From: Desulfobacterales bacterium
GTDB lineage: Bacteria; Desulfobacterota; Desulfobacteria; Desulfobacterales; UBA11574
DNA length: 43,895 nucleotides
NCBI GenBank assembly: GCA_032126435.1
Contig: JAQBBE010000147.1
Span: forward strand, 1 to 43,895
Reading direction: 5' to 3'
The translations under genes and the position numbers were made by a program. Shown piece after piece: positions 5,230-43,895 of this stretch (positions within the stretch are counted from its first letter, which is position 1; every line of letters begins with the position of its first letter). Below the pieces are notes generated by a model. It was given only the letters and a program-made list of their open reading frames with translations, ran no database searches and had not been told where the DNA came from.

Positions 5230-7908
5230 ATGAAAAATGACAGAACAGTATATCTTATAGACGGCAGTGCATATATTTACCGTGCCTACCACGCCATACG
5301 GGGGTTGAGCAATTCAAAGGGATTTCCAACAAATGCAGCGTTCGGGTTCACCCGAATGTTAATAAAACTCATTGAAGATCGGTCCCCGGAGTATGTGGCG
5401 ATGTTTTTTGATGCCAAGGGGCCCACCTTCCGGCACGAAATATACCCGGACTACAAAGCCAATCGTCCCCCCATGCCTGAAGACTTGTCGGTTCAAGTCC
5501 CCTTCATAAAGGAAATCACCCATGGATTCAACATCCCGGTTATGGAAATGCAAGGCTTTGAGGCGGATGATCTTATCGGCACGTTTAGACAACGGGCGGA
5601 AGCGGCCGGATTTTCGGTTGTAATGGTCACCGGGGACAAAGATTTCGTGCAGCTGGTCACCGATACGGCCATTATCTGGGACCCCATGAAAGAAAAAATC
5701 ATCGATTTAGAAGGCGTTAGAAACTCTTTTGGTGTTGAGCCCGAACAAATGATCGACGTTATGGCGCTTTCCGGCGATTCGTCGGACAATATCCCCGGCG
5801 TTCCCGGCATCGGATCCAAAACCGCCCTGTCTTTGATTCAAACCTATGGAAACATTGAGCATCTTTATGACCAAATCGACACGATTACCAAGAAAAAACA
5901 GCATCAAAATCTTGTTCGATACAAAAACCAGGCTTTTTTGAGCAAAAAACTCGTTAAAATCGATACGGATGTGCCGGTTCCATTTAATCCTGAAAGCTTA
6001 AAATTCGAACCACCGGACAATAGCAGGCTGTCCGGCCTTTTTAAAACGCTGGAATTCAGGCAATTGCAGCAAGCCTTCCCTCAACAGACCGATCTTTCAA
6101 ATAAAAATTACTGTCCGATATTTGACATGCCGGCACTATCTGATCTGATCGTTCGCCTGGAAACAACCGAAATATTCGCCGTCGACACCGAAACCACCTC
6201 AAAAAATCCGATGCGGGCACGGATCGTGGGTCTCTCCTTTTCTATTAAGGCTCATGAGGCGTTTTACATTCCCTGTGCCCATAATTATCCGGATGCACCC
6301 GCACAGCTCGAACTTAAAGAAGTATTGAAACAGTTGAAACCGGTGCTGGAAAATCCTAAGATTAAAAAAGTCGGTCAAAATATAAAATATGACTGGATGG
6401 TCCTTAAACGACACGGAATACACCTGGCCGGCGTTATCTTCGACACCATGTTGGCATCCTATCTGATCGACCCTTCAAAACGTGCCCACAACCTGGATCA
6501 GATTGCCCTCGATTTTCTGGATCACAAAACAATTACCTACGAAGACGTTGCAGGCAAAGGCAAAAAGAGCATGTGTTTTGCAGAAATTCCCATTGAAAAG
6601 GCTGCTCCCTATTCTTGCGAAGATGCAGATGTTACATTAGCGGCCTATCATGTTCTGATGCCGAAAATCAAAGCCGCCGGTTTGATGGATCTGTTTGAAA
6701 ACGTCGAAATGCCCCTGGTACCTGTTTTGATGAAGATGGAAATGACCGGCATATGTGTTGACCGGGAAAAGCTCCAGGATCTCTCAAAATCGTTTGAACA
6801 CCAGCTCGAGTTGCTCGAAGAAATGATATATTCAATGGCCGGTGAAGAATTTAATATAAAATCGACCCAGCAGCTTGGAACGATACTGTTTGAAAAACTT
6901 AACCTGCCGGTTCAAAAAAAGACCAAGAAAAAGACCGGATATTCAACGGATGTTAACGTGTTGACATCCCTTGCAGACAAGCATGAACTTCCTGAACTTA
7001 TTTTAAGACACAGAACCCTTGCCAAGCTGAAATCGACCTATACGGATGCCCTGCTCAATCTCTTTCATCCGGAAACCGGAAGAATTCATACCTCCTACAA
7101 TCAAACGGTGACCGCCACCGGAAGATTGAGCAGCTCTGATCCGAACCTGCAGAATATACCCATCCGAACGGAAGAGGGGATAGAAATTCGCAAAGCATTT
7201 GTTCCCAGAAAGGGGTGGACGCTGGTTTCCGCAGATTATTCCCAGATTGAACTCCGTATCCTGGCCCATTATGCCGATGATGAAATTTTGATTCAAGCTT
7301 TCAAAGTTGATGAGGACATTCACACACGAACGGCAACTGAGGTGTTCCAGGTCTTTCCGTCGTTTATAACGCCGGAATTGCGACGGCAGGCCAAAGTGAT
7401 TAATTTCGGTATTGTATATGGTATGAGTCCTTACGGCCTTTCCAAAGAGCTGGGCATCAGCCGTAAAATGGCCAAAACCTATATCGACAATTATTTCTCC
7501 AGATATAAAGGTGTGAAAAGGTTTATCGACCAGACCATCGAAGACGCCAGAAAGACCCAAAGAACCAGTACCCTTCTGGGTCGCATCAGACTTCTGCCGG
7601 ATATCAACAGCCCCAACAAAACGGTCCGGGAGTTTGCAGAACGTACCGCCATCAATACGCCGGTGCAGGGGACAGCCGCCGACCTTATAAAACTGGCCAT
7701 GATCCATGTGGATGCCGCCTTCGGGGAAAAAGGCTTTAAAAGTGCGATGCTCCTTTCAGTGCATGATGAAATCGTGTTTGAAGTCCCTCCTGAAGAGCTC
7801 GAACCCGTTAAAAATCTTGTGAAAAAAACCATGGAAGAGATCTGGGACCTCAAGGTGCCTCTGAAGGTGAATGTGGTATCGGGCAGTAATTGGGCTGAAG
7901 CCCACTAA
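5230..7908 (+). CDS. polA: DNA polymerase I
   Basis: 892 aa. 5'-nuclease N-terminus (YLIDGSAYIYRAYHA), 3'-5' exonuclease (FAVDTETTS), polymerase motifs A (DYSQIELRILAH), B (RRQAKVINFGIVYG) and C (SVHDEIVFE). Confidence 0.97.
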   Translation: MKNDRTVYLIDGSAYIYRAYHAIRGLSNSKGFPTNAAFGFTRMLIKLIEDRSPEYVAMFFDAKGPTFRHEIYPDYKANRPPMPEDLSVQVPFIKEITHGFNIPVMEMQGFEADDLIGTFRQRAEAAGFSVVMVTGDKDFVQLVTDTAIIWDPMKEKIIDLEGVRNSFGVEPEQMIDVMALSGDSSDNIPGVPGIGSKTALSLIQTYGNIEHLYDQIDTITKKKQHQNLVRYKNQAFLSKKLVKIDTDVPVPFNPESLKFEPPDNSRLSGLFKTLEFRQLQQAFPQQTDLSNKNYCPIFDMPALSDLIVRLETTEIFAVDTETTSKNPMRARIVGLSFSIKAHEAFYIPCAHNYPDAPAQLELKEVLKQLKPVLENPKIKKVGQNIKYDWMVLKRHGIHLAGVIFDTMLASYLIDPSKRAHNLDQIALDFLDHKTITYEDVAGKGKKSMCFAEIPIEKAAPYSCEDADVTLAAYHVLMPKIKAAGLMDLFENVEMPLVPVLMKMEMTGICVDREKLQDLSKSFEHQLELLEEMIYSMAGEEFNIKSTQQLGTILFEKLNLPVQKKTKKKTGYSTDVNVLTSLADKHELPELILRHRTLAKLKSTYTDALLNLFHPETGRIHTSYNQTVTATGRLSSSDPNLQNIPIRTEEGIEIRKAFVPRKGWTLVSADYSQIELRILAHYADDEILIQAFKVDEDIHTRTATEVFQVFPSFITPELRRQAKVINFGIVYGMSPYGLSKELGISRKMAKTYIDNYFSRYKGVKRFIDQTIEDARKTQRTSTLLGRIRLLPDINSPNKTVREFAERTAINTPVQGTAADLIKLAMIHVDAAFGEKGFKSAMLLSVHDEIVFEVPPEELEPVKNLVKKTMEEIWDLKVPLKVNVVSGSNWAEAH

Positions 7909-7958
7909 CCCGGATCTCTCATTAAACACTTATTCGATTTTTTCGAAACCGTCACCGA

Positions 7959-8132
7959 TTATTCTTCGGATTTTTCAGGAGTTTCTTCCAAACCTTTCAC
8001 TGTTTCTTCCACAGTTTGGTAGATAGACTTGAATGTCTCGTTAAAACCGGCGGGGCCCAACCTTCCGGTTTCGATGAATTTTATGACGATTTCTTTGGTG
8101 GATCTGAGAATCAGCTCATCGAGGGAACTCAT
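7959..8132 (-). CDS. Small conserved-looking hypothetical protein
   Basis: 57-60 aa ORF (MSSLDELILRSTKEIVIKFIETGRL..). AAGGTG lies 6 nt before ATG 8132. GTG 8141 is the longest alternative. Confidence 0.5.
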   Translation of the reverse strand: MSSLDELILRSTKEIVIKFIETGRLGPAGFNETFKSIYQTVEETVKGLEETPEKSEE

Positions 8133-8271
8133 TAGCGTCACCTTTTTGTTAGGAGTTTTTATAATAAAATTGATCCGTTAACAGAAAAAACCTTCGATGT
8201 CAAGATTCTCTCTAACCGCCTTGTCCCCGGCAGTTAAAAATAAGGTTCTTCTCCAATATAGTTGGAGAAAA

Positions 8272-8521
8272 GGGGTCGAGGAGTCAAGGGGTCAAGGAGT
8301 CTGCAGTTGTCTTCCTGCCATATCCTTCTGCGATATTTGAAGGAATCAATACGGCGGCCCTTCTGATCTGAGATGTCAGACCCTATCTTTCTTTTTTTAA
8401 AATTTTTTTGTTATTATAGAAAGATCCAAACAGAGCCTGTACGATTTTTGCCAAACTTTCAGCTCTCTGTAATTCTTAAGCATTTCACTCGAATCCTTGG
8501 ACCCTTGACCCCTTGAATCCT
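8272..8521. repeat. Imperfect inverted repeat built from GTCAAGG units, flanking about 200 nt of AT-rich spacer
   Basis: GGAGTCAAGGGGTCAAGG at 8280-8297 matches the reverse complement of CCTTGACCCCTTGAATCC at 8503-8520 (17/18). Each arm is internally repetitive (GTCGAGG/GTCAAGG). Confidence 0.5.
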
Positions 8522-8572
8522 TTCAAAATAATCGATTCTTTTGGAGATGATTCAAAAATAATAAGGGTTTAT

Positions 8573-11810: not shown

Positions 11811-13379
11811 ATGACGTCGCCGAATTATAAATCCTGGCCTTTCAGAGAGGCCGACAAGTTACGCAAACGATTCTCAGAATCTTTAAATATCCCCGTCCGG
11901 TTTGAAACCGGCTTTGGACCCAGTGGTTTGCCGCATATCGGCACATTTGCCGAGATCGCTCGAACGACCTGGATACGCCGGGCCTTCGAATTTTTAACCC
12001 AGCGGCAAACCCAACTCATTGCTTTTAGCGATGACATGGACGGTTTGAGAAAAGTACCTTTAAATATGCCGCAACAGGAAATGTTGACTGAAAATTTGGG
12101 AAAGCCGCTATGTCGCATCCCCGATCCATTTGATGAGTGTGAAAGTTATAGCGCATATATGAACAAAAATTTACGTGAATTTTTAGATAGTTACAAATTT
12201 GATTGTGTGTTTCAAAGTTCATATGAAGCCTATACCCGAGGTGATTTTAATGAAGGTTTGGCCATTATCCTTCAAAAGGTTGAAGATATCAAAGCGATCA
12301 TTCTCCCCACCATGGGTGAGGAAAAGCGTACAAATTGGTCTCCGTTTTTCCCAATCTGCGAAAAATGCGGACGGATTTATAGCACCCGGGTGACCGCCTA
12401 TGACACTGAAAAAAATACCATCGACTACATCTGCGACCGAGAAGAAGGTTTGGTAAAAAGTTGCGGAAATAAAGGGACGATTTCGATCTTTAACGGCCAT
12501 GTCAAAGTGGGCTGGAAAATAGACTGGGCATTGCGATGGTATTCTTATGACATCGGATATGAGATGTATGGAAAAGACCTGATCGAATCCGCAAAGCTTT
12601 CCGGTAAGATTATCCGGTTAATGGGCAAACAGCCTCCCATAGGATTGTTCTATGAGCTCTTTTTAGATGAAAAAGGTCGGAAGATTTCAAAAAGCGTCGG
12701 CAAAGGGTTAACCATAGAATCTTGGATGAGTTACGCACCGTTAGAGTCTTTGTTGTACTATATTTTTCAGAACCCAAAGCAAGCGAAGCGGCTGTTTTGG
12801 GGGATCGTACCAAAGTCGGTGGATGAATACCTTACGGGTCTAAATAATTATGAAAAACTGGATGTCGAGAAACAGCCTGATTCGACGATTTGGCACCTTT
12901 TTAATCAGGGTGCAGCGGTTCCTGATTACAGGACATCCATCAATTTTTCATTGATCAACAACCTCATTTCAGCGGTGGGTGCAGACGATATAGATCTAAT
13001 ATTAGAATATCTAAAACGCTATGATCCTTCTATGGAAGAGTTCAGTGCTGTCATAGAAGATTTGGTAAAAAAGGCCATGAACTACTATAGAGATTTTATC
13101 TTGCCGAACAAGCATTATCGGACCCCGACTGAAAAAGAAAAAGAGATGTTAAAACGTCTTCGGGATGAACTCGCAACTTATGATGGCGATGATGAAAACG
13201 AAATTCAATCCATCCCGTTTTCGGTGGCTCGATTGTTTGATGAATCGCCGAAGAACTTTTTTAAAACGTTTTATGAAGTGGTCTTTGGTCAAGAACGTGG
13301 ACCACGCTTTGGAACCTTTGTTCAACTGGTTGGAAAGGAAAAAGCACTTTCATTGTTGGATACGGCCGCCAATACCTGA
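11811..13379 (+). CDS. lysK: Lysine--tRNA ligase, class I
   Basis: 522 aa. HIGH-type motif GLPHIGTFAE, KMSKS-type motif KISKSVG, and overall class I LysRS layout (SWPF..EADK N-terminus). Confidence 0.93.
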   Translation: MTSPNYKSWPFREADKLRKRFSESLNIPVRFETGFGPSGLPHIGTFAEIARTTWIRRAFEFLTQRQTQLIAFSDDMDGLRKVPLNMPQQEMLTENLGKPLCRIPDPFDECESYSAYMNKNLREFLDSYKFDCVFQSSYEAYTRGDFNEGLAIILQKVEDIKAIILPTMGEEKRTNWSPFFPICEKCGRIYSTRVTAYDTEKNTIDYICDREEGLVKSCGNKGTISIFNGHVKVGWKIDWALRWYSYDIGYEMYGKDLIESAKLSGKIIRLMGKQPPIGLFYELFLDEKGRKISKSVGKGLTIESWMSYAPLESLLYYIFQNPKQAKRLFWGIVPKSVDEYLTGLNNYEKLDVEKQPDSTIWHLFNQGAAVPDYRTSINFSLINNLISAVGADDIDLILEYLKRYDPSMEEFSAVIEDLVKKAMNYYRDFILPNKHYRTPTEKEKEMLKRLRDELATYDGDDENEIQSIPFSVARLFDESPKNFFKTFYEVVFGQERGPRFGTFVQLVGKEKALSLLDTAANT

Positions 13380-20996: not shown

Positions 20997-22724
20997 ATGA
21001 AAATATTAATTGCAAAGAACGCTGGTTTCTGCATGGGAGTCCGCAGAGCCGTTGAAATGGTTCTGGATACCCCGAACAAACACGAAAATCCTATCTGCAC
21101 TTTTGGGCCTCTTATACACAATCCCCAGGTTCTAAATCTTTTGGAAGAAAAAGGGATATCCATTCTCGATGAAGTACCGGATCACGGATCCGGTACAGTT
21201 CTGATTAGAGCCCATGGCGTTCCACCCGACACCAAAAAAAATCTGAAAAAAGCCGGTTTCAAGGTTATCGACGCCACATGCCCCCGCGTTATAAAGGTAC
21301 AAACCATCATCCGGAAACATGCACGACAAGGTTGTGCCGCGATCATTATTGGAGACAAAGCACACCCTGAAGTCATCGGTCTTCTGGGGTATGCAGGGGA
21401 TAAAGGGTATGTTGTCGACAATATCGATGATCTTGATTCTCTTCCTTCGTTTAAAAGCGCCATCATCGTTGCCCAGACCACACAGAACACCCTCTTTTTT
21501 GAAAAGGTAAAAACCTGGGCAAACCAAAATTTTCCGCACTACAAGATCTATGATACCATTTGCGATTCCACGGCCAAGCGCCAGGCTGAAGTCCATCACC
21601 TGGCAGATTCTGTGGATGCCGTTATTGTTGTGGGGGGATATAACAGCGGAAATACAAAGCGGCTTGCCGAAATTGCCCGAAAGACCGGCAAGCCGACGTA
21701 CCACATCCAAGAGGAATCGGAAATCGATATGGGTGCACTTTCTGAAGCAAGCTGTATTGGGATTGCAGCCGGCGCTTCCACCCCGAACTGGATCATCAAT
21801 AAAATCTACAGAAAGCTCGAAGCCCTCCCTTATAAAAAGAAGCAGCGCTGGAAAAGGAGCGTGTTTGCTGCCCAGCGAGCCCTTCTTCTCACAAATATCT
21901 ATGTGTCCATGGGCGCCGGATGCCTTTGCTATGCCTGTATCAAGATTCAGGAGATTTCAAACTACTTGCCGTTTGTATTGATATCCGTGCTTTATGTTCA
22001 ATCCATGCATATCTTCAACAACCTGATCGGTACAAAGGCAGACCGATACAATGACCCTGACAGGTCTTTTTTTTATCACGAAAACAAGATCCCCCTTGCC
22101 CTTCTCGCCGTTACAGCTGGGGGCGTTGGGCTGATCATCGCCTATTCAACAGGAAAGATACCCTTTCTGATCCTTCTCGGCATGAGCATCATGGGACTTT
22201 CTTACAATCTGAGACTGATACCGGCAAATTTCGCAGGCAGCAAGTACCGGCGGATAAGGGATGTCCCGGGATCAAAAACTGTTCTGATTGCAATGGCATG
22301 GGGAATCGTGACATCTGTATTGCCCTCCCTGTCCGTACCCGAGAATATTCGTCTGAGTACGGTCATCATACTCCTGTGGTCTCTAAGCCTGGTCTTTGTC
22401 AGGACGGCATTTTTTGACGTTCTTGATATGCAGGGCGATCGCATTGTGGGAAAAGAGACGATACCCATACTTCTGGGAGAAAAGCGAACCTTGCGCCTTT
22501 TAAAAATGATACTGGCCATAAATTTTGGCATTTTGATTTTGTCCAGCGTCTTACATCTTATCTCGAGTCTCGGATTTGCCCTTGCGATCTGCCCCGCTTT
22601 TATCTTCATCGTTCTTTCAGCCCACGAACGCGGTTATATGCTCCCCGGGATCCGGCTGGAGTTTTTGGTTGAAAGTAACTTTGTTATGGCGGGCTTGATC
22701 GCCCTTTTTGGGTCTTTTCTTTAG
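20997..22724 (+). CDS. ispH: 4-hydroxy-3-methylbut-2-enyl diphosphate reductase (IspH) fused to a C-terminal UbiA-type polytopic prenyltransferase-like domain
   Basis: N-terminal ~285 aa are IspH, with three cluster Cys contexts (GFCMGV, ATCPRV, TICDST). The C-terminal ~290 aa have about 8 hydrophobic segments and Asp-rich motifs NNLIGTKADRYNDPD and FFDVLDMQGDRIVGKETIP (UbiA-like DxxDxxxD..G..T). One uninterrupted ORF. Confidence 0.85.
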   Translation: MKILIAKNAGFCMGVRRAVEMVLDTPNKHENPICTFGPLIHNPQVLNLLEEKGISILDEVPDHGSGTVLIRAHGVPPDTKKNLKKAGFKVIDATCPRVIKVQTIIRKHARQGCAAIIIGDKAHPEVIGLLGYAGDKGYVVDNIDDLDSLPSFKSAIIVAQTTQNTLFFEKVKTWANQNFPHYKIYDTICDSTAKRQAEVHHLADSVDAVIVVGGYNSGNTKRLAEIARKTGKPTYHIQEESEIDMGALSEASCIGIAAGASTPNWIINKIYRKLEALPYKKKQRWKRSVFAAQRALLLTNIYVSMGAGCLCYACIKIQEISNYLPFVLISVLYVQSMHIFNNLIGTKADRYNDPDRSFFYHENKIPLALLAVTAGGVGLIIAYSTGKIPFLILLGMSIMGLSYNLRLIPANFAGSKYRRIRDVPGSKTVLIAMAWGIVTSVLPSLSVPENIRLSTVIILLWSLSLVFVRTAFFDVLDMQGDRIVGKETIPILLGEKRTLRLLKMILAINFGILILSSVLHLISSLGFALAICPAFIFIVLSAHERGYMLPGIRLEFLVESNFVMAGLIALFGSFL

Positions 22725-22837
22725 CTTGATCCACTCGGCGGGCGGCTTGTTTCCTTTGTCAAACCGCTCCAAGGACAATGCTTTTTTCAACCCGTATATT
22801 AAAGTTCCACAAGGCAAAAATATCAGGATATCATAAA

Positions 22838-24529
22838 ATGACAAACAGAAAAAAATTGCTGATCGTTGGCGGTGTTGCAGGCGGAGCGTCGTGCGCCGCA
22901 AGGGCAAGAAGACTTCGCGAAGATGCCGATATTATCCTATTTGAACGCGGATCCCATATCTCTTTTGCCAATTGCGGTCTCCCGTATCATATCGGGAAAG
23001 TTATTCCAAGAGAGCGGTCGCTTTTTATTGCTTCACCGGAGTTGTTTAAAAGACAGCTTAATGTGGACGTAAGAACACAAAATAATGTCCGATATATTGA
23101 CCGTAAAAATAAAAGGATCGATGTCGAAAATTTAAAAACCGGGGAAGTATACCGTGAAAGCTACGATGCCCTTGTCCTTTCTCCCGGGGCGGCACCCATA
23201 AAACCTGATTTCAAGGGGATAGATCTCCCTGGCATCTTTACCTTGCGCACCATTCCGGACATGCGAAAGATTATCGACTGGATTAAAACCCGAACGGTGA
23301 AAAAAGCCGCTGTCATCGGCGGCGGATTCATCGGTCTGGAGATGACTGAAAATTTGAAAATACAGGGAATAGATGTCTCCATCATAGAAATGCTGCCACA
23401 GGTCATGCCTTTTTTAGATCCTGAAATTGCGGCGTTCATCCATGATCATCTTAAGTCCAAAGAAATATCACTCTTTTTGGGGAGTCCTGTTACCGGCTTC
23501 AGACAGAAAAACAATGGTATGATCGAGGTTATGATCGAATCCGGCAAAACGGTTGCAGCGGATGTGGTCATTCTTGCCATCGGTGTTCGTCCGGAGGTTG
23601 AGCTGGCAAAAACGGCAGGTCTTGCCATTGGCAGCCTGGGAGGGATTCTGGTTGACGATCAAATGCGCACCAGTGATGAAAATATTTTTGCTGTCGGCGA
23701 TGCCGTTGAAGTAAAAAACTTTGTCACCGCCGCACAAGGTTTGATTCCGCTGGCAGGTCCGGCCAACCGTCAAGGACGAATAGCGGCGGATGTCATCATG
23801 GGAAACAATAGAACTGCGTCGCCGCGATTCCGCGGCGTGCAGGCCACAACAGTTTGCGGTGTACTCGGCCTGACCATCGCTGCCACGGGCATCAGCGAAA
23901 AAGCATTGAGGCAGTTGGACGGAAATGAAGATTTAAAACCTTACGAAAAAATTTATCTCACCCCGAATCACCATGCCGGATATTATCCAGGCGCAAAACC
24001 CCTGACATTCAAATTGATTTTTTCAACCCAAAACGGACGGATACTGGGTGCCCAGGCCGTCGGGACGGAAGGTGTCGAAAAAAGAATCGATGTGATTGCA
24101 ACAGCTATTCAGCATAACGGAACCGTATTCGACCTTGAGGAATCGGAACTGTGCTATGCACCGCAATACGGCTCTGCTAAAGATCCCGTCAACCTCGCGG
24201 GTATGATCGCATCGAATCTGATGCAAGGATATACGTCAATTGTCCATTGGGAGGATCTTTCCGAATCTGATGCATTTATTCTTGATGTTCGCGGACCTTT
24301 CGAATTCAAAAACGGTTATGTTAAAAATGCGGTGAATATCCCTCTGGCTGATTTAAGGAAGCGGATGTCGGAACTTCCCCGGGATCGGGAAATATGGACA
24401 TACTGTTATGAAGGAAAACGGTCTTATTTTGCCTTGCGCATTCTGAAACAGTATGGTTTTAAAGCGGAAAATATTTCCGGAGGGTATTTGATGTATCTGG
24501 CCGTAAAACAATTCAAAGACATTGAGTAA
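22838..24529 (+). CDS. CoA-disulfide reductase / NAD(P)H persulfide reductase-type flavoprotein with C-terminal rhodanese domain
   Basis: FAD motif VGGVAGGASCAARA, redox Cys SFANCGLPY, second dinucleotide fold VIGGGFIGLE, and rhodanese active-site loop CYEGKRS. ATG 22838 is preferred over 22778. Confidence 0.88.
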   Translation: MTNRKKLLIVGGVAGGASCAARARRLREDADIILFERGSHISFANCGLPYHIGKVIPRERSLFIASPELFKRQLNVDVRTQNNVRYIDRKNKRIDVENLKTGEVYRESYDALVLSPGAAPIKPDFKGIDLPGIFTLRTIPDMRKIIDWIKTRTVKKAAVIGGGFIGLEMTENLKIQGIDVSIIEMLPQVMPFLDPEIAAFIHDHLKSKEISLFLGSPVTGFRQKNNGMIEVMIESGKTVAADVVILAIGVRPEVELAKTAGLAIGSLGGILVDDQMRTSDENIFAVGDAVEVKNFVTAAQGLIPLAGPANRQGRIAADVIMGNNRTASPRFRGVQATTVCGVLGLTIAATGISEKALRQLDGNEDLKPYEKIYLTPNHHAGYYPGAKPLTFKLIFSTQNGRILGAQAVGTEGVEKRIDVIATAIQHNGTVFDLEESELCYAPQYGSAKDPVNLAGMIASNLMQGYTSIVHWEDLSESDAFILDVRGPFEFKNGYVKNAVNIPLADLRKRMSELPRDREIWTYCYEGKRSYFALRILKQYGFKAENISGGYLMYLAVKQFKDIE

Positions 24530-36544: not shown

Positions 36545-36758
36545 CTAAAAAATGGGTTGTGCAGGGCTCCTGATCGGGCCGTCAACGACGATGGCTTCAC
36601 CCAAATGCGAAACATTCGCCGGGGCCCGCCAGGGTGTCGGTTTTCGCTGTCCGGGCCAACGCAAAATTATCTATACTTTCTTGGCTAATAAATTTTGTCA
36701 ATTATTTTCTAAACTCAAGCACAAAAGACGTCCCGCTGGCGCGAGGATATATCACCGA

Positions 36759-37745
36759 ATGAAAAGAATACAAATAGTTGGAATTATAGCGCTTTTAATT
36801 TTGGGCCTCGCTGCTGAGGCCAACACTGCACCTGTAAACACCCCGGATGTCCGCCGCTATGTTTACACCGGCGACGGGAGGCTTAATCTTGTCAGCGCAA
36901 AGAACGGGATGTCCTTCAATGGGAGGTACCGGACAGGCAAGGGCATCTATCATGAAAAGGCTCTCAAAGCCATCGATGGTCTGTTTGGGGTTGACCATGA
37001 CCCGGACGGTTTCATCGTATCCCTGCGGCTGATCGAGTTTATCGATTTTTTAGAAGATCGTTTTCATCCAGGGGCACGGATCACCATCGCTTCCGGATGG
37101 AGAAGCCCCCAATACAATACCGATCTTCGCAACAAGGGAAAACTGGCTGCAACGGCCAGCCTCCATCAATACGGGATGGCGGCAGACATAAAAATAGCCG
37201 GGACGTCATCCAAGGACATCTGGAACACTGTCAAAAAACTCGGGTTCGGCGGAACCGGCTACTATCAGGGAGAACTCGTCCATGTGGATGTGGGGCCCGC
37301 GCGTTCATGGGATGAGAAAACATCCGGCGTGGGTACGGATATTTCGGTTCACAACAAACTGATCGCGCTCGTCACAGACTATGACGTTTATCTCCCGGGA
37401 GAGACGATCGCACTCAGATTCATCCGGATGACGGCATTTCCCATCGGTGTAGTACCTGAATTTGTTATTGAAAGTGTAGAAAAGGCCGGTCCATCCAAGG
37501 AGATCACCCGTTTTAAACCGTCGTTTGCATCCGCCGCCGCCGGCGACTGCCCTCGGTTTTCCCATATGGACCAGATGGCGGGAATCCTTTGGCAATTGCC
37601 CCGGGGTATCGCTCCCGGTCGATATACGATCCGTGCGTCATTCTGCCAAAGGCTATGGGACGAGATGTCGGTTGAAATCACCACACCTGAATTCGAAATT
37701 TTCGAATCGAGCGCAAACAAAATGAAGATCAACAGTAAAAAATAA
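36759..37745 (+). CDS. DUF882 / peptidase M15A-like (YcbK/MepK-type) exported protein with C-terminal extension
   Basis: Signal peptide MKRIQIVGIIALLILGLAAEA. ITIASGWRSPQYN, SLHQYGMAADI and LVHVDVG correspond to the M15A zinc-ligand blocks. ATG 36759 is preferred over 36552. Confidence 0.85.
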   Translation: MKRIQIVGIIALLILGLAAEANTAPVNTPDVRRYVYTGDGRLNLVSAKNGMSFNGRYRTGKGIYHEKALKAIDGLFGVDHDPDGFIVSLRLIEFIDFLEDRFHPGARITIASGWRSPQYNTDLRNKGKLAATASLHQYGMAADIKIAGTSSKDIWNTVKKLGFGGTGYYQGELVHVDVGPARSWDEKTSGVGTDISVHNKLIALVTDYDVYLPGETIALRFIRMTAFPIGVVPEFVIESVEKAGPSKEITRFKPSFASAAAGDCPRFSHMDQMAGILWQLPRGIAPGRYTIRASFCQRLWDEMSVEITTPEFEIFESSANKMKINSKK

Positions 37746-37829
37746 AAATTTCTGTGTGATATATGCTTGAAATTATGATAGTTATAAAAAAGTGTGCCTG
37801 ATTTAAAGCTCCTCAAAAAAGGTCCCGGT

Positions 37830-38474
37830 ATGATCGAAAATAACAAAGAGCCCCGTCTGAACATTCGGCAGTGCCAAGTCGGCCCCTGGGGTCTGAATGC
37901 ATATGCTCTGGTTTGTTCAAAGACCCGAAAAAGTGTCCTGATCGACCCCGGAGCCGAGCCGGCGGCACTGGAGCGACTGCTGGCGGAAACTGACCCGATA
38001 GCCATATTACTGACCCACACCCATTCTGATCACACAGGCGCGTTGGCTGAAATGCGAAAACGACTGAAGGTCCCGCTAATGGCGCATCCCGGACATCACG
38101 CCGACGTTATGAAGGAGGCTGCCGACCAATGGCTACACCATGGGAGCACGATTCACGTCGGCGATCATCGAATAAACGTCTATCACACACCGGGCCACAG
38201 TGCGGATCAAATATCTCTGAGGGCGGAATACCATCATTACGCCATCGTCGGAGATACAATTTTCGAAGGTGGTCCGGGGAAAACAGGGTCTGGAGAAGAG
38301 TTCCGGATCACCCTGGAAACATTACGAAAAATCGTGTTGTCCTGGCCGGATGAGACCGTCTGTTATCCCGGTCACGGGCCTTCATTTTGTTTGGGGGATA
38401 AGCGGCAAGATATCGAAAAATTTCTCAATAAGGATCATGGATCTTTTTTTGGAGATGCAACCTGGGATATGTAA
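37830..38474 (+). CDS. MBL-fold metallo-hydrolase (glyoxalase II-like)
   Basis: HxHxDH motif (THTHSDHTGA), TPGHS, later GD..F and GHGP blocks. The start could be GTG 37794 or ATG 37830. Confidence 0.85.
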   Translation: MIENNKEPRLNIRQCQVGPWGLNAYALVCSKTRKSVLIDPGAEPAALERLLAETDPIAILLTHTHSDHTGALAEMRKRLKVPLMAHPGHHADVMKEAADQWLHHGSTIHVGDHRINVYHTPGHSADQISLRAEYHHYAIVGDTIFEGGPGKTGSGEEFRITLETLRKIVLSWPDETVCYPGHGPSFCLGDKRQDIEKFLNKDHGSFFGDATWDM

Positions 38475-38515
38475 CACCCTAATTGATCGTAAAAAGACTC
38501 GGAAAGGTTTTTAAT

Positions 38516-39778
38516 ATGTCGTCAGCAAAGGGTATGATTGTCCTCATGGGCTCCGGTGAACTCACCGCCACAATGGTGGAGGTGCACAAAAAAATACTCG
38601 CCCGGCTGCCGGACCCTCCCAATGCGATTTTTTTAGACACCCCCGCCGGGTTTCAGCTGAATGTCGAAGAGATTTCCAGGAAAGCCGTGGAATATTTTCG
38701 GGTTCACGTTCAAAAACCCCTCGCCGTCGCCTCGTATCAATCCGCTGAGAATACCACGGCATTTGAAGCCGAAACAGCGTATGATCTGCTGCGAAACGCA
38801 CATTTTGTGATAGTGGGACCGGGCAGCCCCACCTATGCGGTTCGTCAGCTTCAGAAAACACCGATCCCCGAAATTCTCAATACCGTCATTCAATCCGGCG
38901 GCTGCCTGGTGGCTGCAAGCGCAGCCGCCCTGACCATGGGCCGCCATACCCTGCCCGTTTACGAAATATACAAGGTCGGCCAGGAAATCCACTGGATCGA
39001 CGGACTCGATATTTTAGCACCATTCGGTTTCAACCTGGTTGTCGTTCCCCATTGGAATAACGCCGAAGGCGGAACCCACGACACACGGTTCTGTTTTATG
39101 GGAGAACCCCGTTTTCGGAAACTCGAGGCACTTTTGCCGGAAGACACAACGATTTTGGGTATCGACGAGCATACCGCCTGCATCATCGATCTTCACGCGC
39201 AACGAATCGACATCCAAGGAATCGGAGACGTCACCCTCCGAAAAATGGGGCGTGAAATAAAATTCAGCAAAGGAGACCCGCTGCCGTTTGAAGCACTGGC
39301 TGAGGAAATGGACCTCGGAGAATGGACCTCCAAAGAACCTGATGGAATCGACGGCGCCGTCGACCTGAAGGCCCCGGAAAAAAACGTGTTGAGTCGAGCG
39401 AGTGTCATCGAAGCTTCTCTTCGCAAAGGGCTGGCGCACCAGGATCAAAAAGCCGCCACCAATGCCCTTTTGGCGTTGGACAGCACCATCTGGAAAGCGC
39501 AAAGGGATTTGGAGGATGCCGAAAGCATTTCTCAAGCGCGTGAAATCCTGAGAGAATCGATTGTTCTTTTGGGGGCGGAATTGGGTCCTTCACCCCACCG
39601 CCTTCGAGAATCCCTGGCGCCATTGGTGGAACGAATGCTTCAATTGAGGGTGGAGTTTAGAAAAAAACAACAATGGTCGGACGCTGACAGCATCCGGGAT
39701 ATCCTTTTGCAAGCCAACATCCGCGTGGAAGATACCGAAGACGGGTTTCGCTGGCGAATCATCGATGAAAACCTTTAG
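38516..39778 (+). CDS. Uncharacterised two-domain protein: peptidase S51/cyanophycinase-like fold plus CysRS C-terminal-like helical tail
   Basis: N-terminal blocks (IVLMGSGE, FLDTPAG, FVIVGPGSPTYAVRQL, GGCLVAASAAALTMG) follow the order of S51 family blocks (GGxE, ..AS, GGdQ.rl, GTSAGA). The C-terminus (RVEFRKKQQWSDADSIRDILLQANIRVEDTEDGFRWR) resembles the extreme C-terminus of cysteinyl-tRNA synthetases. No HIGH or KMSKS motifs. Confidence 0.7.
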   Translation: MSSAKGMIVLMGSGELTATMVEVHKKILARLPDPPNAIFLDTPAGFQLNVEEISRKAVEYFRVHVQKPLAVASYQSAENTTAFEAETAYDLLRNAHFVIVGPGSPTYAVRQLQKTPIPEILNTVIQSGGCLVAASAAALTMGRHTLPVYEIYKVGQEIHWIDGLDILAPFGFNLVVVPHWNNAEGGTHDTRFCFMGEPRFRKLEALLPEDTTILGIDEHTACIIDLHAQRIDIQGIGDVTLRKMGREIKFSKGDPLPFEALAEEMDLGEWTSKEPDGIDGAVDLKAPEKNVLSRASVIEASLRKGLAHQDQKAATNALLALDSTIWKAQRDLEDAESISQAREILRESIVLLGAELGPSPHRLRESLAPLVERMLQLRVEFRKKQQWSDADSIRDILLQANIRVEDTEDGFRWRIIDENL

Positions 39779-39868: not shown

Positions 39869-40873
39869 ATGTCTATGATCCAGACAGAACAAGCGATAAA
39901 GATCCAGACAGAATCCTTCGAGGGTTTTGAATCTATTTTTTTAAACGAAGAATTCGCCCTCGGCTGGAATTGTCTGTTTGTCCTTCCGGTGTGGCTGAAA
40001 TCCTGGTGGGATGTATTCGGCGGCAATCAAGATCCGGAAATTTTGACGGGATATCGTCATGGAAAACTCATCGGTGTTGCGCCGCTGCATGTGGAAGAAA
40101 ACACCGCACGGTTCATCGGGGGAGAAAATATCTGCGATTACCAGGATATGGTCGTGGCCCCGAACCATCATCAGGAATTTCTTGGGGCCGTTTTATCCTA
40201 CCTGAAAAAAAGGGGAATCCAATCCCTTGAATTGGGCGCCTTGAGACCCGAGTCCATCTCGCTCACACAACTGCCCGACATGGCCCGGCGAAGGGGGCAC
40301 ACCGTTGTGTGTGACCCGGCGGGTATAAGCTCTGAAATCGCACTGCCCGGCACCTGGGAATCCTATCTCCAAATGCTGGGGGGCAAACAGCGCCATGAAA
40401 TTCGACGTAAAATTCGGCGGCTCAACGAGGCGGGTCACGTCCGGTTTCGAGTCATACAACGGCCGGAAGAGATTTCAGAACATATGGACATCTTTTTTTC
40501 TATGTTTACGGCGAGCCGACCGGACAAATCCGAATTTTTGACCGACCCCATGTTGTCTTTTTTTCTGCTGCTGGCCCGAAGAATGGCCCAGCACGGGTTT
40601 TTCAGAATGTCTTTTTTAGACGTCGATGGGGTGCCGGCAGCCGGTGTGATGTGTTTCGATTATAACCATACGATTTTCCTTTACAACAATGGATATGATC
40701 CTCGGTTTGGCCAGCTGGGTGTCGGGTTACTCAGCAAGGTATACAGTATTAGAGACAGCATCGAACAAAAAAGGCTCCGGTACGATCTGTTAAAGGGCAA
40801 TGAAGTCTATAAAAAACGATTGGGAAGCACGCCGGTTCCCCTGTATCGCTTAAAGATCGACCTTGAAGGATAA
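39869..40873 (+). CDS. FemAB/CelD-type GNAT-fold acyl or aminoacyl transferase (Acetyltransf_6-like)
   Basis: 334 aa. WxxL...P.FLS..WL..WW-type N-terminus, KQRHEIRRKIRRL block, and C-terminal YNNGYDP.F..LGVG.LL......D.I....R.YDLLKG.E.YK..LG typical of this family. Confidence 0.78.
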   Translation: MSMIQTEQAIKIQTESFEGFESIFLNEEFALGWNCLFVLPVWLKSWWDVFGGNQDPEILTGYRHGKLIGVAPLHVEENTARFIGGENICDYQDMVVAPNHHQEFLGAVLSYLKKRGIQSLELGALRPESISLTQLPDMARRRGHTVVCDPAGISSEIALPGTWESYLQMLGGKQRHEIRRKIRRLNEAGHVRFRVIQRPEEISEHMDIFFSMFTASRPDKSEFLTDPMLSFFLLLARRMAQHGFFRMSFLDVDGVPAAGVMCFDYNHTIFLYNNGYDPRFGQLGVGLLSKVYSIRDSIEQKRLRYDLLKGNEVYKKRLGSTPVPLYRLKIDLEG

Positions 40874-40888
40874 ACGGGGAAGCATCAA

Positions 40889-42115
40889 ATGAAGTCTCGT
40901 CCGTCTGCGTTGAATATTGCCATGCTCAGTATTCATTCGAGTCCCATTGGGGATCTGGGAACCCAAGATACGGGCGGTATGAGCATCTATGTTCGGGAGC
41001 TGGCCCAAGAAATCGGCCGCCGAGGGCATTGCATCGACATCTTCACCCAGCACAATTCCGGCCGGCACAAACGGGTGGTGGATCTATATGACAACGTCCG
41101 GCTCATCCACTTGTCCGGAGAAACGCGGGGCAACGTATCCAAACATTCCCTTTATGCATATTTGCCGCAGCTTTTTCACGATCTGGAATCCTTTAAAATC
41201 AAGGAAAGCATTGAATATGATATCCTCCACAGTCATTACTGGCTCTCCGGAGTTTTGGGAGCCATGGCCCAGTCCGCCTGGGATATCGATCACCTGCTCA
41301 CGTATCACACCATCGGCGCAGTAAAACAACAGACCTGTCCGTCGGAGCATGAGACTGAATTGCGGCTGACCAGCGAACGAAGACTGGCCAGGGTTTGTGA
41401 TGGGCTGGTCGTTGCCACCCAAAAGGAGAAGGAATATTTAAGCCGATATGATGATGTGTCTGATGACAAAATTACAGTGATCCCGTGCGGCGTTGATCTT
41501 GACCGATTCAAACCCTTGGACAAACCATCCGCCCGCCGGCAATTGGGGTTTTCCGGCGATGATTTCATAATACTCTACGTGGGACGGTATGCCCCCGTAA
41601 AGGGACTCAACCGCCTGTTGGAAACCGTTGGCCACCTGACACATCTTCCGGGTCTTCGGCTGGTCATGGTCGGAGGAGACGGTCCGCACACGCCAATGTT
41701 TCGACAGCTGCAGTCTGAAGCAACGGCGTTGAACATCCAAAATCGCGTAACGTTTGCCGGAAGGGTCGAACAGAAAATCCTGCCACAATATTACAGTGCT
41801 GCGGATGTTCTCGCCGTGCCGTCCTATTATGAGAGCTTTGGTCTGGTGGCGCTCGAAGCCTTGGCGTGCGGAACGCCCGTTGTGACAACACCGGTGGGGG
41901 CCATGGAAAAGATTGTAAAAGACGGCGTGACCGGATATGTGGCCACGGATTCGGATCCAAAACATTTTGCCCGTCAGATCGAAGCCATTGGGTTAAAACA
42001 GCAGCAAGGCGACCTGTCGCCGTCTAAAATTCGGGCGTCGGTGACGGAATTTACATGGGCACGATCCGCTTCTTTGTTGCTCGAAGCCTACCGACGGGCC
42101 TTGCACGAACAATAG
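40889..42115 (+). CDS. GT4 glycosyltransferase, MshA-like (candidate inositol-phosphate N-acetylglucosaminyltransferase)
   Basis: [38 protein letters not shown] and TYHTIGAVK track MshA blocks as I recall them ([46 protein letters not shown]). E-x7-E region [18 protein letters not shown]. Confidence 0.85.
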   Translation: [408 protein letters not shown]

Positions 42116-42142: not shown

Positions 42143-42838
42143 GTGTCGGATAGATCAGAAATAATGGTGATTACCGCCCATCCGGATGACGCAGAATTCG
42201 GTTCGGCGGGTTCTGTCGCCAAGTGGACCCGGGAAGGTCGACGGGTTGTCTATGTTGTGTGCACCAGCGGTGACAAGGGCACCGAAGATCCGGATATAAC
42301 GCCGCAACAGCTTGCAAACATTCGAGAAAAAGAACAGAAAGCAGCCGCAGCGGTATTGGGGGTTTCTGATGTGGTTTTCCTCCGATATCCAGATCAGGAG
42401 CTCGAAGATACGCCGGATTTCCGCAAAACCATCGTGAGACAAATCCGAACGTATAAACCTGAAATGATCGTAACATCGGATCCATACCGGCGCTACATCT
42501 GGCACAGGGACCACCGCATCATCGGCCAGGTAACCCTGGATGCGGTCTTTCCCTATGCCCGAAACCTGCCGGCCTACCCGGATTTGATCGAAGAAGGGCT
42601 CATGCCCCATAACGTTCAAAAAATCCTGTTCTTCGGCGCTGAAGACGTCAACTTGCGTATCGACATTACCGAGACCTTTGACCTCAAGCTCGCTGCGCTG
42701 CGCTGTCACGAAAGCCAAATGTCCCAGCTAAACATTCCGGATCTGGAAAAAATGCTGTGGGAGCGGTGCCGGAAAATGGCCGAAGGGGCTGATTTCGAGG
42801 TGGCCGAAGCGTTCCACCAGGTGACGGTGCCCCTTTGA
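42143..42838 (+). CDS. PIG-L/LmbE family N-acetylglucosaminyl deacetylase (MshB/BshB-like)
   Basis: VITAHPDDAEFG, CTSGDKG and HRDH motifs. GTG start 6 nt after AGAGGAG. Confidence 0.88.
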   Translation: MSDRSEIMVITAHPDDAEFGSAGSVAKWTREGRRVVYVVCTSGDKGTEDPDITPQQLANIREKEQKAAAAVLGVSDVVFLRYPDQELEDTPDFRKTIVRQIRTYKPEMIVTSDPYRRYIWHRDHRIIGQVTLDAVFPYARNLPAYPDLIEEGLMPHNVQKILFFGAEDVNLRIDITETFDLKLAALRCHESQMSQLNIPDLEKMLWERCRKMAEGADFEVAEAFHQVTVPL

Positions 42839-42877: not shown

Positions 42878-43483
42878 TTATGGAAATTCCAGCAACGCGT
42901 TTAATCGATCCGACAGTATCTCGGCAGTGGTAAAGCAGATGCCGTGAAGCCCCAATGCCTCAGCGGCCTTTACGTGCTCCAGGGTGTCGTCGATGAAGAC
43001 GGCCGCCCCGGGTTCAACCCCCAATCGGCCGAGGGTCATCTCGAAGGCCGCCGGATCGGGCTTGACCACCCCCTCGTCGCCGGAGCAGAAAACAACGTCG
43101 AACAAATTGCGTATATTCCAATCCACCAGCCAGTTCGCCAAACCCGGCGGCGAATTGGAGAGCACCGCCAGTTTGTAGCGGCCGTATAATAGACCCATGA
43201 GTTCTGCCACACCCGGGTTGATGGCCTCATCGGCATGATAACGTCGACGGAACGCATCGATTTCTTCGGCAGAGTTCAACCCGAGTTCAGGTCCGATAGC
43301 GTACCAGAACGCTTCGGCGGTCTTTCGGCCCAGCAGAGCGTCTTTCCAGGCGTCGCTGCCGAACATGATGGCGTTGATGGACTCGGGGGCGAGCCCCAGA
43401 TCCTTCTCGTATCGAGCAAACAGAGCGGGCGGCTTTTGGGCCGAGATGACCCGCCCGAAATCGAAAATTATCCCTTGTATCAT
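42878..43483 (-). CDS. HAD-superfamily hydrolase (phosphatase)
   Basis: MIQGIIFDFGRVI (DxG nucleophile motif), VLSNS, and FIDDTLEHV. ATG 43483 is preferred over 43525. Confidence 0.85.
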   Translation of the reverse strand: MIQGIIFDFGRVISAQKPPALFARYEKDLGLAPESINAIMFGSDAWKDALLGRKTAEAFWYAIGPELGLNSAEEIDAFRRRYHADEAINPGVAELMGLLYGRYKLAVLSNSPPGLANWLVDWNIRNLFDVVFCSGDEGVVKPDPAAFEMTLGRLGVEPGAAVFIDDTLEHVKAAEALGLHGICFTTAEILSDRLNALLEFP

Positions 43484-43603
43484 AACCAAAGAGATTGCCC
43501 GTTTGAAGTCAACGACCCCCCGCAAATCGGGTGTCTTGAATTTGTCCGCCTATTTTTAGCGGACAACGGCAAAAGCACGTGAGTGCTTTAATCGTTGCAC
43601 TTG

Positions 43604-43895
43604 CTACCGGGTGCCAACGCACCCGGTTTTTGCAAAAATAAAATCTTCCACCAATGAAAATGCAACATCGTCCGTGTATTGAACCGGTGGATGTTTGCAA
43701 TAATAAGCTGACGGGGCTTCCAACACACCCCCCACATTTCTTTGGATGGCCAGTTTGCACAACCGGATGCAATCGATGACAGCGCCGGCGGAATTGGGTG
43801 AATCCTCCACGGAGAGTCTCAGTTCGACATTCATGGGCAGATTGCCGAAAATCCGCCCTTCCATGCGAATAAAACATACTTTCTGGTCATCCAGC
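43604..43895 (-). CDS. ino1: myo-Inositol-1-phosphate synthase, 3' fragment (gene continues past the right edge of the window)
   Basis: The frame is open to the window edge. FGNLPMNVELRLSVEDSPNSAGAVIDCIRLCKLA..GGVLEAPSAYYCKHPPVQ matches the conserved MIPS C-terminal region. Confidence 0.85.
   Translation of the reverse strand, partial: LDDQKVCFIRMEGRIFGNLPMNVELRLSVEDSPNSAGAVIDCIRLCKLAIQRNVGGVLEAPSAYYCKHPPVQYTDDVAFSLVEDFIFAKTGCVGTR

Follow-up and report, generated by a model that had tools for sequence, protein, structure and literature searches.

The 43,895-nucleotide contig JAQBBE010000147.1 of a Desulfobacterales bacterium (GenBank assembly GCA_032126435.1), which was analysed over its full length and is hereafter called the window, carries towards its 3' end a gene whose product joins two parts: an N-terminal domain with the fold of the S51 peptidases, such as peptidase E (PepE) and cyanophycinase, and a C-terminal domain of the type with which cysteinyl-tRNA synthetase (CysRS) binds the anticodon of its tRNA. 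This fusion gene is preceded by a gene for a metallo-beta-lactamase (MBL)-fold hydrolase and followed on the same strand by genes for a Fem-like tandem-GNAT protein, a family 4 glycosyltransferase (GT4) and an LmbE/PIG-L deacetylase, and genes for a haloacid dehalogenase (HAD) hydrolase and inositol-1-phosphate synthase (Ino1) run convergently with this series (Table 1). The cluster resembles the mycothiol gene set minus the cysteine ligase and the MshD-type acetyltransferase, and the positions of MshC and MshD are occupied by the S51/anticodon-domain fusion and the Fem-like tandem GNAT.

An alternative start of the fusion reading frame, the TTG at 38483, would add 11 codons. The ATG given in Table 1 is preferred because relatives start there, M1 being kept in at least 90% of them, and because a Shine-Dalgarno-like GGAAAGG lies 8-14 nt 5' of it. 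A 100% identical protein (P0001) is encoded on two public contigs, one a metagenomic scaffold of 54.9 kb and the other from the assembly of a metagenome-assembled genome (MAG), and the nearest relatives in GTDB are from Desulfobacterota MAGs. A word-indexed search returned at least 8000 family matches at E<=0.001, and an exhaustive search of representatives at 50% identity returned 1549 matches at E<=0.001 and 455 at E<=1e-30, most of the matches among these representatives aligning over the full fusion protein at 34-57% identity. The family has at least 589 species matches, spread over many phyla, and in clusters at 90% identity it is at least 8 times richer than the family of the Fem-like neighbour. 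Desulfosarcina, Desulfatibacillum, Desulfofustis and Thermodesulfovibrio are among the genera that carry it. When third-domain fusions were sought in ten longer family members, only the same two domains were found, and none of these members was fused with the Fem-like protein. The fusion architecture is real, ancient and widespread. NCBIfam holds no model for the family, which is uncurated, and public databases label its members 'cyanophycinase-like exopeptidase', 'peptidase E' or 'hypothetical'. No paper on the fusion protein or its cluster was found in the literature, and the 2010 paper of Aravind on synthetase-like peptide ligases mentions neither S51 nor LmbE.

Table 1. Features of the fusion gene, its cluster and other genes of the window (positions in nucleotides of the window; residues are those of the fusion protein).
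Feature	Positions	Strand	Basis
S51/CysRS-anticodon-binding-domain fusion, complete reading frame, 420 aa plus stop	38516-39778	+	Reading-frame list; start matches relatives
N-terminal S51-fold (peptidase E/cyanophycinase-like) domain, residues 1-262	38516-39301	+	Foldseek, family profile
Ser135 codon, predicted nucleophile in AASAAA elbow	38918-38920	+	Aligns with Ser of GSSAGA/CSAGA in plain S51 proteins and 6nqc
Insert 1, family-specific, residues 143-160, RHTLPVYEIYKVGQEIHW	38942-38995	+	Alignment with plain S51 paralogues
His179 codon, triad His, PHW motif	39050-39052	+	Aligns with PHH/PHF of plain S51 proteins and 6nqc
Insert 2, family-specific, residues 182-199, NAEGGTHDTRFCFMGEPR	39059-39112	+	Alignment with plain S51 paralogues
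Glu218 codon, triad Glu, GIDEHT motif	39167-39169	+	Aligns with GIDE of plain S51 proteins and 6nqc
Linker, variable, probably flexible, residues 263-288 (~26 residues)	39302-39379	+	pLDDT <50; low conservation, length differs among relatives
CysRS-type anticodon-binding domain, residues 289-420: four-helix bundle, then C-terminal helix and beta-hairpin	39380-39775	+	Profile, Foldseek, CysS_C
Stretch with equivalents of E. coli CysRS anticodon-contact residues	39647-39754	+	HMMER alignment to 1li5
MBL-fold hydrolase, glyoxalase II-like (GloB-like), directly upstream of fusion gene	37794-38474	+	PF00753, E=3.5e-22
Fem-like tandem-GNAT protein (Acetyltransf_6/FemAB_like), candidate aminoacyl-tRNA-dependent transferase	39869-40873	+	PF13480, E=2.5e-30
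GT4 glycosyltransferase, MshA-like	40889-42115	+	TIGR03449 mycothiol_MshA
LmbE/PIG-L deacetylase (MshB/BshB-like), AHPDD motif present	42143-42838	+	PF02585, E=3.8e-33
HAD hydrolase, candidate GlcNAc-inositol-phosphate phosphatase	42878-43486	-	PF00702, PF13419
Inositol-1-phosphate synthase (Ino1), 3' end, runs off window	43604-43895	-	Translation
M15 (MepK-like) L,D-endopeptidase domain with C-terminal extension	36552-37745	+	
Pyridine-nucleotide-disulfide oxidoreductase fused to rhodanese	22778-24529	+	
Reading frame joining IspH/LytB and UbiA prenyltransferase	20997-22724	+	IspH/LytB, E=3e-92
Class I lysyl-tRNA synthetase	11811-13379	+	tRNA-synt_1f, E=1.9e-115

By curated thresholds the fusion protein lies outside S51, though the fold and the catalytic triad are present. 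Pfam Peptidase_S51 (PF03575) matches it at E=7e-4 with 19.7 bits, below the cut-off of 23.9, and the TIGR02069 cyanophycinase model and the NCBIfam PepE model likewise stay below threshold, with 16.8 bits against a cut-off of 126.6 and 12.8 bits against one of 156; PF03575 at E<=0.01 matches 27 of 52 family members. In the PDB, the 'cyanophycinase-like exopeptidase' 6nqc is matched by the single sequence at E=2.4e-5 and, over profile positions 7-258, by a family profile at E=4.8e-14, the profile having been made from an alignment of 52 diverse members and searched against PDB sequences. The AlphaFold 2 (AF2) model of the fusion protein, whose mean predicted local distance difference test (pLDDT) score is 70, also finds 6nqc first in Foldseek (E=4.6e-13, TM score 0.76 on the target). 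The 20 best PDB matches of the model, among them PepE (6a4r) and cyanophycinase (3en0), are all S51 proteins, with E<=3e-6 and target TM scores of 0.63-0.76.

The predicted triad is nearly invariant. Among 126 diverse full-length representatives, from which all residue conservation counts were taken, position 135 is Ser in 125, position 179 is His in all 126 and position 218 is Glu in 121. The nucleophile elbow reads A-S-A-A in the fusion family and G-S-A-G in plain S51 proteins. Two inserts specific to the family flank the S51 active site. In insert 1, which also contains W160, residues P147, E150, Y152, K153 and G155 are conserved at 96-100%; in the plain S51 paralogues that are encoded beside the fusion gene in some relatives, 7 residues of this insert are absent outright and the remainder is unconserved. 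Insert 2, of which 12 residues are absent outright from the same paralogues, has the near-invariant residues N182, G185, D189, T190, C193, G196 and R199 in the fusion family, and its region of the AF2 model has a pLDDT below 50.

The C-terminal domain is related to CysRS and to no other synthetase family that the profile could find. Pfam CysS_C matches the fusion protein itself at E=9e-4, below its curated cut-off; it matches 48 of 52 diverse members, with a best E of 1.6e-11, and several distant members pass its gathering score. The TIGR00435 cysS model aligns its positions 365-464 of 466 with fusion residues 319-414 at E=5.8e-6, and a single-sequence search of the PDB reaches Coxiella CysRS at E=8e-4. 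The family profile matches five CysRS sequences in the PDB, among which are 8qhp (E=5.2e-16; profile 293-416 on chain 359-487 of 490), 3tqo (E=7e-13; 294-415 on 335-460 of 462), E. coli CysRS 1li5 (E=8.6e-13; 293-416 on 332-460 of 461) and 6ujd (E=7.5e-11; 329-416 on 407-493 of 494), and in the same search it matches no synthetase family other than CysRS and no MshC structure. Because the profile matches span residues 293-416, the tail is a whole CysRS anticodon-binding domain of about 125 residues. This part of the AF2 model has a pLDDT of 73-90, and the CysRS-tRNA-Cys complex 1u0b (1u0b_B) is the next Foldseek match after the S51 set, at E=3.9e-3 over 131 columns. The HIGH and KMSKS motifs were sought in the fusion protein and neither was found.

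In E. coli CysRS, Arg427 and Asp436 form hydrogen bonds with G34 of the GCA anticodon, Trp432 stacks on G34, Arg423 takes part in a water network, and Arg439 is the fourth residue targeted in re-engineering of anticodon recognition (PMC12684709, PMC13449415). The HMMER alignment to 1li5 runs with a constant offset of 45 residues and places an equivalent at each of these positions in the fusion protein: R378 for R423 (kept in 123 of the 126 representatives), R382 for R427 (120), W387 for W432 (aromatic in 122), D391 for D436 (123) and R394 for R439 (124). D406 and W413, the equivalents of D451 and W458, are kept in 121/126 and 119/126. As judged from these residues, there is good indirect evidence that the fusion protein binds tRNA-Cys via its anticodon.

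The public labels, together with the fact that both Pfam matches of the fusion protein fall below curated cut-offs, would suit an ordinary PepE/cyanophycinase-type dipeptidase whose C-terminal tail is a relic without tRNA function. However, the domain does not look like a relic, because the anticodon-contact residues are kept in 120-124 of the 126 representatives at an overall identity of 34-57%, and the inserts with their invariant residues are largely absent from plain S51 paralogues of the same operons. A plain dipeptidase is thus very improbable. The original prediction, made from the letters of the window, had described an S51-like fold with AASAAA at the GxSAG nucleophile elbow and a protein without aminoacyl-adenylate-forming motifs, and the searches and alignments above bear out all three points. 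It had also described the tail as like the end of CysRS; this likeness is significant in profile searches, but the domain is far longer than the ~45 residues then proposed.

The genes around the fusion gene point to a sugar-inositol pathway. The GT4 protein has its best model match in TIGR03449 at E=8.3e-90, with 301.6 bits against a cut-off of 462.5. The LmbE protein matches BshB1 best (E=5.9e-29) and MshB at E=9.7e-12, scoring below the cut-offs of the MshB, BshB1 and BshB2 models. The role of the HAD protein as a phosphatase is uncertain, because its motif I, FDFGRV, is without the second Asp typical of HAD phosphatases. The full Ino1 gene is present in contig L001, which is identical to the source, and matches PF01658 (Inos-1-P_synth). 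Upstream, the MBL hydrolase matches TIGR03413 GSH_gloB at E=1.8e-23, under the cut-off of that model. No MshC- or BshC-like ligase was found in any cluster, either in the window or in related loci with their 10-kb flanks. Rfam at gathering thresholds found no structured RNA, such as a riboswitch or T-box, in the window, and a scan of the window for promoters and terminators gave sites no more frequent than in shuffled sequence, so that it is uninformative on operon structure.

Gene linkage was followed in 80 loci from different GTDB species, in which six-frame open reading frames (ORFs) within 10-kb flanks were searched with the proteins of the window; ORF calls are crude in high-GC loci, where six-frame ORFs and conservation across loci were used. 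The near clade, at 46-88% identity, comprises members from Desulfobacterota, Nitrospirota, Nitrospinota, Syntrophobacteraceae and others. Thirty-five of its loci are testable, each having at least 5 kb downstream, and genes were counted within 10 kb: the GT4 gene is present in 29 of them, the Fem-like gene in 28, the LmbE gene in 23, the HAD gene in 8, the MBL (GloB-like) gene in 7 and the Ino1 gene in 6. Ino1 genes lie in loci L003, L004, L005, L006, L047 and L052. The distant clade, at about 40% identity, comes from Chloroflexi, Dormibacterota, Acidimicrobiia and other Actinomycetota, and the most distant members, at 34-36% identity, stand in varied and mostly unrelated contexts. Because contexts vary among distant members, the linkage to sugar-inositol genes is a trait of one large clade and not of the whole family.

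This distribution bears on a reading in which the fusion protein is a free-standing proofreading deacylase of tRNA-Cys that removes a wrong or damaged aminoacyl group, such as phosphoserine or oxidised cysteine, and in which its place among sugar-inositol genes is incidental. In joining a hydrolase fold to a tRNA-specific handle, the fusion protein is similar to trans-editing factors, its gene stands alone in many contexts of the distant clades, and phosphoserine and oxidised cysteine are acidic, like the aspartate preferred by S51 enzymes. The carrier lineages presumably overlap with anaerobes that use the phosphoseryl-tRNA-Cys route. However, most near-clade loci, over several phyla, show linkage to Fem-like, GT4 and LmbE genes, which is hard to explain as chance, and aerobic Actinomycetota and Dormibacterota carry the family too. 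We consider such a deacylase unlikely.

By its AF2 model (pLDDT 92), the Fem-like protein has a tandem-GNAT fold of the FemX/MprF type; in sequence, PF04339 FemAB_like gives 22.5 bits, where the cut-off is 27. The best Foldseek matches are Sba18/Sbb17 (9WQY/9WQW/9WQX; E ~4e-12, target TM scores 0.66-0.71, identity 14-18%), which are aminoacyl-tRNA-dependent peptide synthases whose structures contain the amino sugar streptothrisamine. Next come FemX, FemA and the aminoacyl-phosphatidylglycerol synthase domain of MprF, and acyl-CoA-dependent tandem GNATs (VipF, the clavulanate tandem GNAT and a glucosamine (GlcN) N-acetyltransferase) match with lower TM scores. The original prediction had called this neighbour Fem-type, and these matches together with PF13480 confirm that it is Fem-like.

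Because aminoacyl transfer from tRNA to an amino-sugar amine is what its best structural matches do, the Fem-like protein might by itself act as the cysteine transferase. It would move cysteine from Cys-tRNA-Cys to GlcN-inositol, much as Orf11/Sba18 work with Gly-tRNA, and the fusion protein would be a partner that holds the anticodon of tRNA-Cys and so gives the amino-acid specificity missing from Fem enzymes, with the hydrolase domain in an auxiliary role, for instance removing mischarged or surplus donor or trimming the product. The order of the Foldseek matches, the adjacency of the Fem-like and fusion genes in 28 of the 35 near-clade loci and the fact that the S51 enzymes known so far are all hydrolases fit this arrangement. 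However, the Fem-like family is far smaller than the fusion family, whose genes often stand alone, a triad that is nearly invariant across phyla is left unexplained by a purely accessory role, and the longer family members show no joining of the two proteins. Division of the work in this way is a real possibility, though less likely than not.

The fusion gene is probably the mark of a tRNA-dependent pathway, so far undescribed, by which anaerobic bacteria make a cysteine-containing thiol. The cluster would make a cysteinyl-GlcN-inositol compound with Cys-tRNA-Cys as the activated donor, so that the MshC step is replaced. Because the fusion family is larger than the Fem-like family and is often found without a Fem-like gene, the fusion protein should have a catalytic activity of its own on a tRNA-bound substrate, and because a plain hydrolase of Cys-tRNA would be futile, a transferase is favoured over a hydrolase. 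That the fusion protein is a cysteine transferase acting through a cysteinyl-Ser135 intermediate is a serious possibility, somewhat short of probable. The original prediction had suggested a tRNA-dependent reaction that aminoacylates an amino sugar in place of the ATP-dependent MshC step, with the fusion protein as a recruiter of Cys-tRNA. The first part has become much more plausible with the Ino1 and HAD genes, the linkage across the near clade and the structural matches of the Fem-like protein, and it is the best explanation at hand, still something that we infer; a mere recruiter role is disfavoured, because the near-invariant triad and the members without a nearby Fem-like gene suggest that the fusion protein does more than recruit for a Fem-type enzyme. 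The co-occurrence with Fem-type, GT4 and LmbE genes in other taxa, also raised then, is seen in the near clade and not in the distant one.

In the proposed mechanism, the CysRS-type anticodon domain would dock on the GCA anticodon of tRNA-Cys, and the flexible linker of about 26 residues would give the S51 domain access to the aminoacylated 3' end. With activation by His179 and Glu218, Ser135 would attack the ester of Cys-tRNA-Cys to give a cysteinyl-enzyme, which the free amine of GlcN-inositol would resolve to Cys-GlcN-inositol. As a pure speculation, the conserved residues H24, H188, H219 and C193 might bind a metal that holds the thiolate, the part played by zinc in CysRS and MshC. The acceptor would be supplied by Ino1, the MshA-like GT4, the HAD hydrolase and the LmbE deacetylase. 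The Fem-like transferase may then modify the amine of the cysteine in the place of MshD, possibly with a second aminoacyl group taken from an aminoacyl-tRNA, and the upstream glyoxalase-II-like hydrolase would use the resulting thiol. Within this scheme we infer that tRNA is bound, that cysteine is the transferred group, that an acyl-enzyme forms, which compound is the acceptor and how the work is shared with the Fem-like protein.

Several observations weigh against this mechanism. We know of no S51 enzyme that acts as a transferase or on an RNA-linked substrate, and the best structural matches of the Fem-like neighbour already transfer aminoacyl groups from tRNA to the amine of an amino sugar. 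The N-terminal part of the AF2 model is only moderate, with inserts below a pLDDT of 50, and does not fix the geometry of the active site. In the PDB, the GT4 protein matches sucrose-phosphate synthase 6kih at 5.2e-63 and C. glutamicum MshA 3c48 at 8.7e-62; because it is equally near to sucrose-phosphate synthase, the case for an inositol-phosphate acceptor draws mainly on the Ino1 gene. The linkage is missing in 7 of the 35 near-clade loci and, the Fem-like gene included, is seen in 0 of 14 testable distant-clade loci. A dedicated tRNA-Cys gene was sought in the window and 60 related loci and none was found, the only tRNAs there being unrelated. The broader proposal is that the family founds a new class of aminoacyl-tRNA-dependent transferases, with a borrowed anticodon domain and a seryl-ester intermediate, and together with the Fem-like neighbour makes a new Cys-GlcN-inositol thiol, an analogue of mycothiol, in sulfate reducers, Nitrospirota and other anaerobes. 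Taken as a whole, this proposal is tentative. That the fusion protein represents a new enzyme class has a fair chance of being correct.

Other genes recur beside the fusion gene. In 14 near-clade loci (L003 at 7862-8548, L005, L006, L011, L019, L021, L030, L035, L036, L044, L047, L051, L052 and L073), a plain S51 paralogue of 230-280 aa lies on the same strand directly upstream of it. GSSAGA, PHH and GIDE are intact in this paralogue, and TIGR02069 gives E=3e-14 to 8e-23, under its cut-off, in the four that were scanned; the window itself has no such paralogue. The paralogue might pair with the fusion protein as a heterodimer or run the reverse, hydrolytic reaction. In 10 distant-clade loci (L065, L066, L068, L070, L072, L074, L075, L080, L081 and L082, from Acidimicrobiia, other Actinomycetota and some Chloroflexi), the gene directly 5' encodes an alpha/beta hydrolase of about 300 aa. 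A hydrolase gene is thus paired with the fusion gene in both clades, and the hydrolase folds differ.

The hydrolase genes that lie directly 5' of the fusion gene in the two clades, 14 for plain S51 and 10 for an alpha/beta hydrolase, suggest hydrolytic turnover and speak for another reading, a tRNA-gated amidase. As such, the fusion protein would be an S51 peptidase that cuts N-terminal cysteinyl amides, for instance to free cysteine from a store of Cys-GlcN-inositol, and it would be switched by uncharged tRNA-Cys when cysteine is short. S51 enzymes are exopeptidases acting on the N-terminal residue of short peptides, as known for the family and in line with the Foldseek matches, and an anticodon domain binds charged and uncharged tRNA alike. 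On the other hand, the plain S51 paralogue in the cluster could hydrolyse such an amide without a tRNA handle, no precedent is known to us for a peptidase regulated by tRNA in this way, and the cluster would be left without a cysteine-adding enzyme unless the Fem-like protein serves. An amidase of this type seems improbable.

About 15 near-clade loci carry two tandem GFO/IDH/MocA oxidoreductase genes between the fusion and Fem-like genes (e.g. L048 6369-7454, L013 11518-14173). The pair resembles inositol 2-dehydrogenase IolG and glycoside 3-dehydrogenases, so that inositol is indicated again, and it may epimerise inositol or a sugar. In L013, the one locus annotated, the first gene of the pair is fused to a ThuA domain. 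A GFO/IDH/MocA homologue also lies further upstream of the fusion gene in 4 actinobacterial loci.

Among distant members, a clpS-DUF2017-fusion operon with gaps of 0-1 nt and the fusion gene last occurs in L085 (7256-9254) and L086 (1255-3253), with a member of 34% identity. ClpS is the N-degron adaptor, and aminoacyl-tRNA transferases serve N-degron pathways; the arrangement may be coincidental. In three Acidimicrobiia loci (L065 11257-11331, L066 11283-11357 and L072 11293-11366), a tRNA-Glu(UUC) gene lies directly 3' of the fusion gene, which is probably local synteny. ARAGORN reports a 91-nt tRNA-like gene with a two-base 'anticodon' (gc) at 5461-5551 of L070, a Chloroflexi MAG, about 4.5 kb upstream of the fusion gene. 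The Dormibacterota neighbours QueG, an EAL/GGDEF protein and methylmalonyl-CoA mutase were considered as functional partners and set aside as lineage synteny of close relatives, and a small GNAT acetyltransferase gene that overlaps the fusion gene in one Syntrophomonadaceae locus was set aside because it does not recur.

Elsewhere in the window, the gene beside the MBL gene encodes an M15 domain that is extended at its C-terminus by about 140 aa without a family match, and this neighbour is also kept in the closest relatives L001, L002 and L004. The oxidoreductase-rhodanese protein, which is CoA-disulfide-reductase-like and is encoded 14 kb upstream of the cluster, is possibly a thiol/disulfide or persulfide reductase. 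The lysyl-tRNA synthetase of the window is of class I, the rarer type among bacteria. The reading frame that joins IspH/LytB and UbiA is unusual in combining prenyl transfer with the synthesis of isoprenoid precursors.

To our knowledge, no principal low-molecular-weight thiol has been named for most sulfate reducers and Nitrospirota and for many uncultured anaerobes. The cluster is a concrete candidate for a thiol pathway in anaerobes, with Cys-GlcN-inositol, with or without a further N-substituent, as the predicted product. Cys-GlcN-inositol has a calculated neutral mass of 444.14 ([M+H]+ 445.15). If the proposal is true, Cys-tRNA rather than a dedicated ATP-dependent ligase would power the addition of cysteine in a mycothiol-like pathway, and thiol synthesis would be tied directly to the charging state of tRNA-Cys. 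A functional assignment of the fusion family would also annotate thousands of genes now called 'hypothetical' or 'cyanophycinase-like'.

Among known systems, MshC is a close functional parallel. Both proteins are related to CysRS and belong to a GlcN-inositol pathway, the proposed net product, Cys-GlcN-inositol, is the same as that of MshC, and the neighbours of the fusion gene would parallel Ino1, MshA, MshB and a second acyl-transfer step. However, MshC retains the Rossmann catalytic domain and uses ATP to activate cysteine, whereas the fusion protein has only the anticodon domain and would rely on Cys-tRNA made by CysRS. Compared with CysRS itself (1U0B), fusion residues ~293-416 are homologous to CysRS 332-460 and keep the residues in contact with G34, but the catalytic, CP and stem-contact-fold domains are absent and the anticodon domain is linked to an unrelated hydrolase fold. 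Lacking the catalytic domain of the synthetase, the fusion protein is neither a CysRS nor an MshC. Bacillithiol synthesis by BshA, BshB and BshC likewise combines a GT4 enzyme, an LmbE deacetylase and a cysteine-adding step, and the LmbE protein here scores best against the BshB1/BshB2 models. In contrast to bacillithiol, Ino1 in the cluster indicates inositol and not malate as the aglycone, and the cluster has no BshC homologue.

With the S51 enzymes (PepE, cyanophycinase and the acI actinobacterial 6NQC) the fusion protein shares the fold and a Ser-His-Glu triad in the same order, at an identity of ~15-21%, and it differs from them in the two inserts, the A-S-A-A elbow and the tRNA-binding domain. 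MshC is without a C-terminal anticodon domain. A 2022 review lists MshC and CysRS* as the known CysRS paralogues and describes CysRS* as without the anticodon domain (PMC9437257). The fusion family is the complementary case to these two, which keep the catalytic domain. Fem-type enzymes, namely Orf11 of the BD-12 pathway and Sba18/Sbb17, take aminoacyl groups from tRNA and attach them to an amino-sugar amine (PMC12945691), but they have no partner with an anticodon domain and use Gly-tRNA in antibiotic pathways of Streptomyces. The same 2026 review sorts aminoacyl-tRNA-dependent enzymes into four classes (synthetase-like, GNAT/Fem, cyclodipeptide synthases and PEARLs), with no S51-type enzyme among them (PMC12945691). 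The union of a hydrolase fold with a free-standing anticodon domain of a synthetase is a new enzyme architecture outside these four.

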